From a virus (lineage: Duplodnaviria > Caudoviricetes), in IMG/VR virus record IMGVR_UViG_3300011444_000001, positions 1 to 51,884 of that record: 51,884 nucleotides of DNA; one strand, written 5' to 3'. Position 1 is the stretch's first letter. Each line of letters opens with the position of its first letter. A program made the position numbers and the translations under genes. Positions 17,751 to 19,423 of the stretch are shown piece by piece. The notes under the pieces are model-generated. The model did not search any database. It was not told the DNA's origin and saw only the letters and a program-made list of their open reading frames with translations.

Positions 17751-17779
17751 TTGACAAAACCCGTCCACCATGTTATATT
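17751..17779 (+). promoter_or_regulatory. Strong sigma70-type promoter
   Basis: TTGACA-17 nt-TATATT with TG extension. Confidence 0.8.
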
Positions 17780-17789
17780 ACGGGTGTAA

Positions 17790-17930
17790 ATATCGCGTTG
17801 GGAGCCCTATCAAGGGTACGCGCAAGTGGTCGTAACACGGCCTGAGCATCCTCATCCCCTCCCAGGATGGCCGTGAAACTAGACAGGCCGAACGCTCAGA
17901 TAAGGCCAACTGTCAAGTCCTGGGAGGGAC
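17790..17930 (+). promoter_or_regulatory. Structured 5' leader with an anti-SD alternative pairing
   Basis: CCCTCCCAGGA (17857-67) is the perfect complement of TCCTGGGAGGG (17918-28, contains the SD); competing stems CACGGCC/GGCCGTG and ATCCT/AGGAT. Confidence 0.6.
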
Positions 17931-17939
17931 TATTCCACC

Positions 17940-18542
17940 ATGCCAGAACCTGAGGACGGGAGCCAGCGTAAGCTGACGCTCTCTGAGGTGGAGGAGGCTG
18001 TGCATGGGTTTGCGCTGCAATACGCTAAGGCGCACACCTCGTTGCCAGTCACTGCGTTCAGGGTGTTTCTCTGGCCGGGCTCGTTCATCTGTAAGGTGAC
18101 ACCAGGCCCGACGGCGAGAATCATTCTGGGTAACTCAGCGATGCCCGGCGGAGCAGATTTCCCAGATGCGTTGAAGAGAGCCATCGACCGCGTCTGGACG
18201 CAACGGCTGTACAGCACGATGGCTGTCGAGCTTGTCGCGCATGTCTACGAGCGCGATGCAAGTTGGAGGCGCTGGTTGAAGGAGCGGTACAATTTCGACA
18301 GGGAGCTGATCCCGCATATGCTAGGCGATGAGGAGCTGTCGGTGCGGCACGTCGAGCGCATCGAGGTAATTCACAAGCCTACCGGCTTGCGCGAAGTGAT
18401 CGAGGTGGAGCCTGGCGCGAAGCGGAGCACATTCGCCGCGCAGGACATTGCCAAGATGCGCCTCGCTCGGCGCGTCCACGAGCAGCACCTCGCAGAACAG
18501 CAGAAGAAGGACAACGAGATCCCTTTTCCAGTGAGCGCGTGA
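17940..18542 (+). CDS. Protein with a C-terminal peptide release factor domain-3-like region lacking GGQ
   Basis: ERIEVIHKPTGL...RSTFAAQDIAKMRLARRVH aligns by eye with RF1 SAIRITHLPTGI...RSQHKNKAKALSVLGARIH; the GGQ loop is absent. Confidence 0.55.
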   Translation: MPEPEDGSQRKLTLSEVEEAVHGFALQYAKAHTSLPVTAFRVFLWPGSFICKVTPGPTARIILGNSAMPGGADFPDALKRAIDRVWTQRLYSTMAVELVAHVYERDASWRRWLKERYNFDRELIPHMLGDEELSVRHVERIEVIHKPTGLREVIEVEPGAKRSTFAAQDIAKMRLARRVHEQHLAEQQKKDNEIPFPVSA

Positions 18543-18552
18543 ACTAAGAACT

Positions 18553-18774
18553 GGGGCCTCGGTTCTCCCTCGTTGAGCGCCCAGGGCTGAGGCTTAAACA
18601 GAGAAGTGTAGGGTCAAGCGAGGCAGCGGCTTCTCTGCCCAGGAAAATTGTCTGGGGAGCAATGGGGCTGTTCTCCAACAACCTGTCCCCCGACTGGCTA
18701 GGTCGAGATCATTGGCACAGAGCTGATGGCTCGTAAAGTGGTTGCCACGACAACCATTATCCTACGCCAGCTCC
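18553..18774 (+). ncRNA. Putative structured RNA (series of hairpins)
   Basis: GCCTCGG/CTGAGGC, CAGAGAAG/CTTCTCTG, CCCAG/CTGGG, GAGCTG/CAGCTC, TGGTTG/CAACCA; no ORF of 60 aa or more. Confidence 0.5.
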
Positions 18775-18864
18775 GACGCGAACAGCACTAGCTGATGGGA
18801 ATGTATCTCATGTTTACGGCCATCTTCATGAGGTATATGGCAGGTTCGATTCCTGCTCGCGTCT
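18775..18864 (+). ncRNA. tRNA-like RNA without a canonical anticodon arm
   Basis: Acceptor GACGCGA/TCGCGTC; canonical T-arm GCAGG-TTCGATT-CCTGC; CAGC/GCTG hairpin; 11-bp stem with a 14-nt loop. Confidence 0.75.
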
Positions 18865-18865
18865 C

Positions 18866-19056
18866 TCGACCGTCACGCATGCAAAGGTACAGCTAACTGT
18901 CACCGGGCTTCAAGCCTCCCTCCTTCGGGTACGGAGCAGTCATAGGTGATTAGGCCGCGATAACATCTAGAGCCCTGTTAGCAGCCTGCGAAGCCCGCTA
19001 CGCCCGAGGCTTACCAGCGCAACATATCGGGCAGGGAACAAGGCTGGGGCGGTCGA
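18866..19056 (+). ncRNA. Putative ~190-nt multi-stem ncRNA
   Basis: Closing TCGACCGTC/GGCGGTCGA; inner CGGGCTTC/GAAGCCCG, GCCCGA/TCGGGC and TAACA/TGTTA. Confidence 0.6.
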
Positions 19057-19060
19057 ACCT

Positions 19061-19149
19061 GGCGAGGTGGCTGACTATCGGCAAGTCACGACGGACTGTA
19101 AATCCGTTGCTCTGTTGAGCGTTGAGGGTTCGACTCCCTCCCTTAGCCA
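19061..19149 (+). tRNA. tRNA-Tyr(GTA), atypical acceptor stem and D region
   Basis: Anticodon arm ACGGA-CTGTAAA-TCCGT; long variable arm GCTC/GAGC; T-arm GAGGG-TTCGACT-CCCTC; acceptor GGCGAGG/CCTTAGCC needs a bulged A. Confidence 0.8.
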
Positions 19150-19152
19150 TCA

Positions 19153-19177
19153 CTCATCTTTAGGGAGTAAATATGAG
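19153..19177. promoter_or_regulatory. 25-bp dyad motif covering the RBS and ATG of the next ORF
   Basis: CTCATC TTTAG GGA GTAAA TATGAG. Confidence 0.75.
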
Positions 19178-19310
19178 ACCAGTTGAAGAAGTAATTTTGG
19201 GACTCACTATGGTATACGAGCGTGGCCCCAGGACACAGGCGCGGCGCGATCAACTCATGCGCGTTGTTGCGTGTGTTCTCGATTACTTCATTCCAGTGGA
19301 GCAAGCATGA
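19173..19310 (+). CDS. Small hypothetical protein (45 aa)
   Basis: Manual translation MRPVEEVILG...; GGGAG RBS; ATGA overlap with the next ORF. Confidence 0.5.
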   Translation: MRPVEEVILGLTMVYERGPRTQARRDQLMRVVACVLDYFIPVEQA

Positions 19311-19423
19311 GCCGCCGTCGTGGCAAGAACAAGGTGGCTTGGGGACAAGGCAAGCATCGCAAGGCGCGGATCAAGCGCTTCGCCGCTCGCAATCCTGACT
19401 CGAAGAAAGTAGGAAAGAAATGA
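19307..19423 (+). CDS. Very basic 38-aa peptide
   Basis: MSRRRGKNKVAWGQGKHRKARIKRFAARNPDSKKVGKK; GGAG RBS; ATGA overlaps on both sides. Confidence 0.55.
   Translation: MSRRRGKNKVAWGQGKHRKARIKRFAARNPDSKKVGKK

Follow-up and report, generated by a model that had tools for sequence, protein, structure and literature searches.

Why should a tailed phage place the gene of a release-factor-like protein behind one strong promoter, and follow it with a tRNA-shaped RNA and a tRNA-Tyr? This question is raised by a locus at positions 17751–19978 of the virus record IMGVR_UViG_3300011444_000001 (Duplodnaviria; Caudoviricetes), a tailed phage genome of 51,884 base pairs (bp) that is complete, with direct terminal repeats, and that is called the window throughout. 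We found that a 14-nucleotide (nt) loop in the tRNA-like RNA (TLE) is fully complementary to the structured leader of the protein gene; the protein probably contains the RF-1 domain of release factors (RFs) without its GGQ loop, and the tRNA-Tyr appears to keep a host-type anticodon arm on an altered body. Our answer, held tentatively and at a little less than even confidence, is that the locus is an early operon of an uncultured phage, with a consensus promoter used by the RNA polymerase of the host, in which the tRNA-like RNA tunes synthesis of the protein and the tRNA-Tyr supplies or shields tyrosine decoding. The argument rests on the following features.

17751–17779, + strand: sigma-70-type promoter, TTGACA-N17-TATATT with an extended -10 TG, matching 11 of 12 consensus positions
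17780–17939, + strand: 5' leader of 160 nt
17940–18542, + strand: open reading frame (ORF) for a 200-amino-acid (aa) protein with homologues; residues ~125–200 (18312–18539) are probably an RF-1 domain without the GGQ loop
18775–18863, + strand: tRNA-like RNA (TLE) with a cloverleaf fold
19061–19148, + strand: irregular tRNA-Tyr(GUA) called by ARAGORN, the only tRNA called in the genome

Leader and tRNA-like RNA

Comparisons among relatives cover six lineages, namely the window, L003, L004, L005, L006/7/11 and the X2 relative. The leader, described as structured in a preliminary description of this DNA, is indeed more stable than nearly all of its shuffles (z -2.09; 2 of 200 as stable), and its predicted fold buries the ribosome-binding site of the 200-aa ORF in a helix of 12 bp (17857–17868/17917–17928), in which an anti-Shine-Dalgarno sequence, CCCUCCC, pairs with the Shine-Dalgarno (SD) sequence GGGAGGG (17922–17928) located 11 nt ahead of the ATG. 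None of the 12 pairs varies among the three sequences compared, and covariation is therefore uninformative in either direction. The leader core (17850–17939) is better conserved than the gene that it precedes, with 84.3% identity to L003 (75/89 aligned positions) against 73.7% (440/597) for the ORF; single-base indels rule out a coding function for this core. The long form of the leader is found only in the window, L003, L004 and the X2 relative, while L005 and L006/7/11 have a short, unrelated one.

The tRNA-like RNA that had been noted at 18775–18863 is upheld by its cloverleaf fold (z -2.83; 1 of 200 shuffles as good) and by stems that covary in four lineages. It has a 7-bp acceptor stem, a 4-bp D arm, a canonical T arm (GCAGG-UUCGAUU-CCUGC) and no encoded CCA, and at the anticodon position the canonical 5-bp stem and 7-nt loop are replaced by a 12-bp stem and a 14-nt loop (18813–18826). 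The element was called neither by ARAGORN nor by Rfam at E <= 10. As for a transfer-messenger RNA, ARAGORN reported none at default settings and the loop holds no reading frame; allowing introns with an 80% threshold gave spurious calls only. Counterparts occur in L003, L005 and L006/7/11. In the alignment of the four sequences every one of the seven acceptor pairs is kept in all four, with both sides changed at five of the seven, and three of the five T-stem pairs covary, one pair being broken in L003. Stem covariation had been proposed beforehand as a check on the RNAs of this locus, and compensatory changes were found in the acceptor and T stems of the TLE and in the hairpin stems of a second RNA module, M1 (see below). 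A covariance model of the TLE, R1, finds exactly one strong copy per relative (81.8–97.5 bits), these matches being by construction its training sequences or near-identical duplicate loci. Its other matches are weak and fall on the tRNA-Tyr genes and on a second, smaller tRNA-like element that L002 and the L005 record both have. This second element, of 68 nt (L002:3255–3322 and G007:C1:14824–14891; 23.4 and 16.2 bits with R1), has a 7-bp acceptor stem and a T arm, but its anticodon arm is replaced by a short hairpin with a GNRA cap; in relatives its distance upstream of the ORF is ~2.7 kb, and the window yielded no counterpart.

In the TLE, the 14-nt loop UUUACGGCCAUCUU could pair over its full length with leader positions 17864–17877, through 12 Watson-Crick and two G-U pairs. 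With -22.1 kcal/mol this duplex ranks first in a scan of both strands (25,930 windows), a rank shared only by the antisense of the loop itself; the next value is -18.2. It was equalled by none of 2000 shuffled loops and none of 1968 random 160-nt segments of the genome. Since the two positions outside Watson-Crick pairing are G-U when read in the plus sense, the match fits RNA pairing on that strand and not a DNA repeat. L003 keeps the pairing, at -21.0, as the best non-self match in 11.9 kb. The paired leader segment overlaps the inner hairpins and the four uppermost pairs of the helix that sequesters the SD sequence. This complementarity is the first direct hint of a functional coupling between the RNA and the protein gene.

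The release-factor-like protein

Homologues bear out that the ORF at 17940–18542 is real: 20 close homologues at E <= 0.001, among 188 candidates, share 49–90% identity with its product, all of them unnamed or annotated as hypothetical. A profile search of 1.84 billion proteins returned 69 cluster representatives, 28 of them at E <= 1e-10. A scan of one genome per prokaryote species gave 458 pattern matches and no confirmed relative, scans of viral contigs with the alignment A4 and with P0035 gave no family member, and tblastn of three family members against GenBank phages gave no match. The family is thus known only from viral and metagenome data.

The C-terminal ~75 residues are probably a homologue of RF-1, that is of release factor domain 3, from which the GGQ loop has been deleted, a conclusion that we draw from profile and model comparisons with good, though not full, confidence. 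Release factor families recur as the match across libraries at residues ~136–197, always below the cut-off. Pfam RF-1 (PF00472) gives 12.2 bits (E 0.18), against a curated cut-off of 35 bits; when the same model was run against all six frames of the genome, the 200-aa ORF was its sole candidate (13.3 bits, E 0.0025). In a broader family set, two of 55 members match Pfam RF-1 at E <= 1, and one of the 55 matches the PHROG annotated as RF-1 domain peptide chain release factor (E 0.0063). NCBIfam PrfH aligns residues 140–190 with positions 125–175 of its 200 (E 0.12). Five of the seven PDB matches (E <= 10) of the broad profile A3 are to RF1 (four, at E 0.07–0.08) or PrfH (E 0.82). Using hhalign, we compared A3 with an RF-1 domain alignment built from 16 loci in five bacterial genomes and obtained a score of 25.0 (P 0.0024, probability 12%), with a gap of 14 residues exactly where release factors have the GGQ loop. 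The reversed template reached 10.8 and none of 20 column-shuffled templates exceeded 12.9, so that the real score is twice that of any of the 21 controls; against full-length release factors, P was 0.0015. The ESM Atlas model of the protein (mean predicted local distance difference test, pLDDT, 0.49) has RF-1 clusters as its whole-protein structural neighbours, at template modelling (TM) scores of 0.32–0.36. Residues 118–200 of this low-confidence model reach TM 0.77 and 0.66 to RF-1 clusters over 71–72 aligned residues, and every named structural neighbour carries RF-1.

While building the RF-1 alignment we met a natural cellular release factor without GGQ. It is an RF2-like paralogue adjoining prfB in a Nostoc (cyanobacterial) genome (L150/L144; G005:C40:11533–11847), and its RF-1 domain lacks the motif.

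In the phage family the GGQ motif is found in none of 21 close homologues, and in two of the 55 members of the broad set at unrelated positions. The claim that the protein is GGQ-less therefore stands, on these counts and on the 14-residue gap. With the loop deleted, it could dock like a release factor but would not hydrolyse peptidyl-tRNA. The accompanying claim of a C-terminus like RF domain 3 fares less simply: the matches agree with each other and the controls score half as high, but every sequence match is below threshold. The N-terminal 120 residues had no match in any library searched, and the longer proteins included no fused longer form, which is weak evidence.

It is unlikely that the resemblance to RF-1 arose by chance or convergence and that the protein is an unrelated small alpha/beta protein. 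The sub-threshold matches would fit such a view, as would the narrower, closer-family profile A2, which matched nine PDB sequences, none of them a release factor; a TM score on 76 residues of a low-confidence model also means little. Yet the same family comes out on top over the same residues in Pfam, PHROGs, NCBIfam, PDB, hhalign and structural neighbours, and chance would have to account for an hhalign score at double the level of all controls.

The irregular tRNA-Tyr

The tRNA-Tyr that had been read at 19061–19148 was called there by ARAGORN, but falls below the gathering score of the Rfam tRNA model; no Rfam family, RF00005 included, matches at its gathering score anywhere in the window. 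The best match within the clan is tRNA-Sec (38.0 bits against a gathering score of 47), as it is for the copies in L013 and L006 (35.9 and 34.8 bits). The anticodon arm is ACGGA-CUGUAAA-UCCGU and the T loop UUCGACU; the 7-nt anticodon loop with U33 and a purine at 37, the T loop and the long class II variable arm are those of a bacterial tRNA-Tyr. The acceptor region is less regular. ARAGORN draws two of its seven positions as unpaired in each of three lineages; by our reading of the sequences, seven pairs fit in each when a single nucleotide bulges out of the 3' strand, and the acceptor–D connector of each has 4 nt against the canonical 2. All three lineages with a tRNA-Tyr have this irregular build. 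Between the window and L004 the acceptor, D, T and variable-arm stems differ in sequence, and pairing is kept.

The 18-nt anticodon arm is identical in 119 bacterial tRNA-Tyr genes (120 loci, many phyla), and whole-tRNA identity to bacterial tRNA-Tyr reaches 0.73 at best, the 12 tRNAs shown all having regular stems. A host cannot be assigned from the tRNA-Tyr, as the arm is spread over many phyla and the best whole-tRNA identity is only 0.73. Tyrosine codon usage in the phage is ordinary (225 of 7647 codons). Judged from these comparisons, the tRNA-Tyr is a gene under selection in which a host-type anticodon arm appears to have been kept on an altered body.

Transcription unit and linkage among relatives

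The strong promoter that had been read at 17751 is borne out both by its match to consensus and by its retention, since the homologous ORF of L003, L005 and L006/L007/L011 likewise has this promoter upstream. Between 15000 and 21000 there are 10 promoter-like sites, against 2.7 expected, and the site at 17751 is one of three of its grade there. Near-identical consensus promoters (GGCTTGACAAA...TGTTATATT) occur at 15468, 17751, 19979 and 25799, four on the + strand and none on the minus strand, and they probably mark the early transcription units of the phage. The third of them closes the locus:

19979–20007, + strand: next promoter of the same type, heading the SNF2 helicase gene; end of the unit

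Because no terminator-like site was found on the + strand between 15000 and 21000, and because the next promoter lies at 19979, positions 17751–19978 plausibly form one transcription unit.

Whether homologues of the ORF are followed by tRNA-like elements had been suggested as a check on the locus. A tRNA-shaped RNA lies ~120–520 nt after the ORF stop in six of six lineages, all of which are syntenic kin:

Window: TLE 233 nt after the ORF stop, tRNA-Tyr 519 nt after
L003: TLE after the ORF
L004: tRNA-Tyr after the ORF
L005: TLE after the ORF
L006/7/11: tRNA-Tyr, then TLE, after the ORF
X2 relative: TLE after the ORF

Module order varies among these relatives as it does in phage tRNA clusters, which brings in a plainer explanation. 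The locus could be an ordinary phage tRNA cluster adjoining an unrelated hypothetical gene, its gene order inherited and the loop–leader match without regulatory role; the tRNA-Tyr would then serve codon supply, and the TLE, M1 and a further module, M3, would be processing or stability elements or decaying tRNA copies. The reshuffling fits this well, the tRNA-Tyr being found behind M3 in the window, between the two modules in L004 and immediately behind the ORF in L006, as do the close kinship of all linked lineages, the absence of the pairing from L004, L005 and L006, the ordinary use of tyrosine codons, and the folding of two of the four RNA segments, which is no better than that of shuffles. 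On the other hand, the acceptor, T and hairpin stems have changed in a compensatory way, which speaks against decay; the loop–leader duplex, inside the same operon, is the genome's best, and the leader core is more conserved than the ORF. On balance we regard an ordinary cluster as a somewhat unlikely account.

The ORF-free stretch and the downstream small genes

The remaining features of the unit are these.

18543–18689, + strand: non-conserved spacer
18690–18770, + strand: module M1, with closing stem CUGGCYAGG/CCURCGCCAG, a 7-bp hairpin and an invariant loop CCACGA (18745–18750)
18868–19054, + strand: module M3, with ends GACCG/CGGUC and a 3' block of ~60 nt in common with L004 986–1100
19173–19310, + strand: 45-aa ORF with SD AGGGAG
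19307–19423, + strand: 38-aa K/R-rich ORF, a candidate gene
19553–19840, + strand: conserved small gene of 95 aa

The preliminary description had reported about 600 nt free of ORFs and dense in stems. There is indeed no credible ORF in 18543–19172 (~630 nt), and M1 and the TLE are structured, but the stretches at 18540–18695 (z -0.29; 67 of 200 shuffles as good) and 18864–19062 (z +0.11; 107 of 200) carry no such signal. The first of these is the spacer, whose position is taken by a small ORF in L003 and L005 and by a long hairpin in L004, and which the X2 relative skips by joining 18526 directly to 18761. The small ORF, at ~4600–4800 in L003 and ~4567–4780 in L005, is basic (motif KYGPRK..W) and follows the RF-like gene; the corresponding stretch of the window is non-coding. 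The second is M3, which is found in two lineages only, the window and L004; a scan of IMG/VR with its core gave at least 119 matches, and none of those screened had M3 context.

M1 ends 4–7 nt upstream of a tRNA-shaped RNA. Read from the sequences, its hairpin stems differ among the window, L003 and L004 and pair in all three, with 1, 14 and 0 of 200 shuffles, respectively, as stable. A motif scan of IMG/VR gave eight matches, two of them known relatives and six chance matches lacking the closing stem or the T loop. The M1 loop, UGCCACGAC, is perfectly complementary to 19317–19325 (-17.8 kcal/mol; next best in the operon -11.4), that is to codons 4–6 of the 38-aa ORF; this pairing has no conserved partner in L002/L013, is probably due to chance and was set aside.

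The 45-aa ORF has a homologue at L006 5025–5147 (68% identity over 41 aa, E 7e-16), and the 95-aa gene is matched by tblastn in L004 (E 4e-24), L002 (3e-7) and L005 (1.5e-6). The frame of the latter overlaps an 86-aa ORF at 19420–19680, in which the conservation does not lie. The 38-aa ORF, preceded by GGAG, overlaps the ORF on either side of it at ATGA. The peptide that had been proposed as part of the system is encoded by an existing, ATGA-coupled ORF, but one for which no homologue was found in six related loci or among GenBank phages. In-frame ORF pairs split by a single stop, considered as a sign of read-through, were rejected, being no more frequent than adjacency gives.

These results bear on the original proposal, according to which the protein, the tRNA mimic, the tRNA-Tyr and the peptide act together as a translation-mimic system that decoys effectors or disturbs termination or rescue. 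The unity of the parts is supported to the extent that they lie in one terminator-free unit and that the ORF is linked to a tRNA-shaped RNA in all six lineages, but the peptide and two of the non-coding stretches remain unsupported and the lineages are all kin. We consider such a system improbable. Its parts are co-located, a GGQ-less RF-1 domain is probable, an anticodon arm identical to that of hosts, on an aberrant tRNA body, would suit a decoy, and there is a literature on tRNA-targeting defences and phage tRNAs; however, the peptide is not conserved, and the 27 window ORFs scanned include no further gene for tRNA repair or translation.

Genome setting

The minus strand encodes the portal, the large terminase and a virion protein, and the plus strand an SNF2 helicase, an exonuclease, a Sak4-like annealing protein, a ParB-methyltransferase and a family A DNA polymerase. 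Among 50,697 GenBank phage records there was no match to the 2-kb region (blastn) or to the 200-aa ORF (tblastn). Public sequencing runs gave no RNA match and one strong DNA match, labelled as a freshwater sediment metagenome, which may be the source itself. The polymerase is split between ORFs 34095–35882 and 36297–37178, with a gap of ~415 nt (PHROG DNA polymerase, E 1.6e-51; the second ORF corresponds to Pfam DNA_pol_A positions 135–380), and could be a split gene or hold an intervening element. Two genes upstream of the operon, a 150-aa ORF (16384–16836) has a DUF6782 / SprT-like metallopeptidase match (E 1e-7), and in the early region ORFs 30755–31207 and 23508–23885 match Cpn10 (GroES-like, E 2e-6) and a TSCPD domain (E 3e-6), respectively.

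Discussion

Our preferred reading of the locus joins a processed transcript, a tRNA-Tyr for supply or shielding, riboregulation by the TLE and a GGQ-less release factor homologue in a single early operon. RNase P and 3' processing would cut the transcript at its tRNA-shaped elements. The tRNA-Tyr thus released may supply or shield tyrosine decoding when host defence attacks tRNA-Tyr, as in the case of T5 and retron-Eco7 discussed below. The TLE would be a tRNA-shaped riboregulator that pairs with the leader and sets the amount of the RF-like protein, which in turn may act on the ribosome or on the RNAs of the operon, docking without hydrolysis of peptidyl-tRNA. Taken as a whole, this combination falls just short of being probable. 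The parts themselves, the covariation and the complementarity are observed, the RF-1 homology is probable, and processing, regulation and a role against defences are inferences.

Several observations weigh against it. The loop–leader test was made post hoc, and a cruder test with 15-mers (<=3 mismatches) gave three matches against 1.45 expected, a number reached by 17 of 100 shuffles. Loop and leader are invariant wherever they co-occur, and the pairing is thus without covariation. L004 has the leader and no TLE in its 7.6 kb, and L005 and L006 have the TLE with neither the long leader nor a clear partner; being absent from these three, the pairing is lineage-specific. It would open the SD helix only at the top, and so may or may not affect translation. 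For the protein, RF-1 sequence matches lie far under curated cut-offs (12–15 bits against 35 in Pfam), the closer-family profile A2 finds no release factor in PDB, the hhalign probability is only 12% and the Atlas model has a mean pLDDT of 0.49. The six lineages are syntenic kin (55–90% protein identity), and their linkage therefore counts as one evolutionary observation and not as independent ones.

A bolder version would make the locus a self-regulating circuit of TLE, leader, GGQ-less release factor homologue and tRNA-Tyr. Here the enlarged loop at the anticodon position of the TLE would be a 14-nt antisense probe for the SD-sequestering leader, reversing the logic of a T-box, and the level or processing state of the mimic would set the output of a protein that fills the ribosomal A site without peptide release. 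This protein and the aberrant tRNA-Tyr, near-cognate to UAA and UAG, might block host termination or rescue or promote read-through, while tRNA-targeting defences would be decoyed. We regard this full circuit as highly improbable.

The preferred reading, an early operon, would matter for more than this phage. Phage tRNAs have lately been recognised as counter-measures to tRNA-cleaving immunity, and soils and sediments yield irregular tRNA-shaped RNAs without an assigned role. The present locus is a compact case that combines a tRNA mimic having a leader target, a probable loop-stripped release factor domain and a host-armed tRNA-Tyr, and it hints at a new route by which phages could tune or protect translation. 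Should the pairing prove regulatory, the TLE would represent a new class of riboregulators shaped like a tRNA; should the protein bind ribosomes, it would be the first GGQ-less release factor mimic of a phage for which a role is proposed.

Among known systems, the closest to the tRNA-Tyr is that of phage T5, which overexpresses a tRNA-Tyr from a strong promoter and so evades retron-Eco7 (PtuAB) (PMC11555353). The two have in common a phage-encoded tRNA-Tyr(GUA) and a strong promoter. In contrast to T5, the body here is irregular, with an extra acceptor nucleotide and a 4-nt connector, and a part in counter-defence would be a prediction from sequence.

Irregular tRNAs and allo-tRNAs offer a second comparison. 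A study of these (PMC5389517) describes "polycistrons of irregular tRNA sequences" in soils and sediments as well as phage 8/4 tRNAs, and holds that some are non-translational. The locus resembles these in its tRNA-Sec-like scoring, long variable arm and bulged stems, and also in its non-canonical cluster, its sediment or soil origin and the non-translational or regulatory roles suggested. It differs in lacking both the 8/4 or 9/3 acceptor/T layout of allo-tRNAs and their long, tetraloop-capped D stem, and in that the 12-bp stem and 14-nt loop at the anticodon position do not appear in the sections of that paper used here. In a comparison of the tRNA-Tyr with the allo-tRNA layout, the L004 copy could form an 8- or 9-bp acceptor stem only with three mismatches, and the D stem has 4 bp with a loop of 9–11 nt.

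In T-box leaders, including the translational kind that sequesters the SD sequence, a tRNA anticodon pairs with an mRNA leader. Similarly, the tRNA-shaped RNA described here could pair, through the loop at its anticodon position, with a leader that holds an SD-sequestering helix. Unlike in a T-box, where the specifier is codon-sized, the pairing spans 14 nt, no element senses the acceptor end, and the partner is a phage-encoded mimic from the same operon; an Rfam search of 17600–19500 gave no T-box (RF00230) match at E <= 10. The tRNA cluster of phage T4 yields stable non-tRNA RNAs, species 1 and 2, which are co-transcribed and processed with the tRNAs. The RNA studied here differs from these in that its outline is that of a complete cloverleaf and its complementary target is defined.

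Plant PrfB3 is a release factor derivative without GGQ, and phage-encoded release factors and suppressor tRNAs have reportedly been described in a study of recoded phages (10.1101/2021.08.26.457843). The 200-aa protein shares with PrfH, ArfB, RF1 and RF2 the PTG...R...A...L...R core of beta strand and helix that follows the catalytic loop, and it is collinear with the 200-aa PrfH model. It differs from RF-1 proteins in that the GGQ loop of ~14 residues is gone as a whole, its N-terminal 120 residues are unmatched, and the family is viral or metagenomic only. GGQ-less RF-1 derivatives such as mitochondrial MRPS35 exist, and loss of the catalytic glutamine is precedented (PMC6514570); the main text of that paper does not use the word "phage".

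Our literature search met no description of a phage GGQ-less release factor homologue adjoining tRNA mimics, nor of a tRNA-like RNA that pairs with a leader. The separate parts of the locus thus have precedents, in the phage tRNA-Tyr that counters defence, in the polycistrons of irregular tRNAs and in GGQ-less release factor domains, and what is new in this analysis is the complementarity between the loop of the tRNA-like RNA and the leader.

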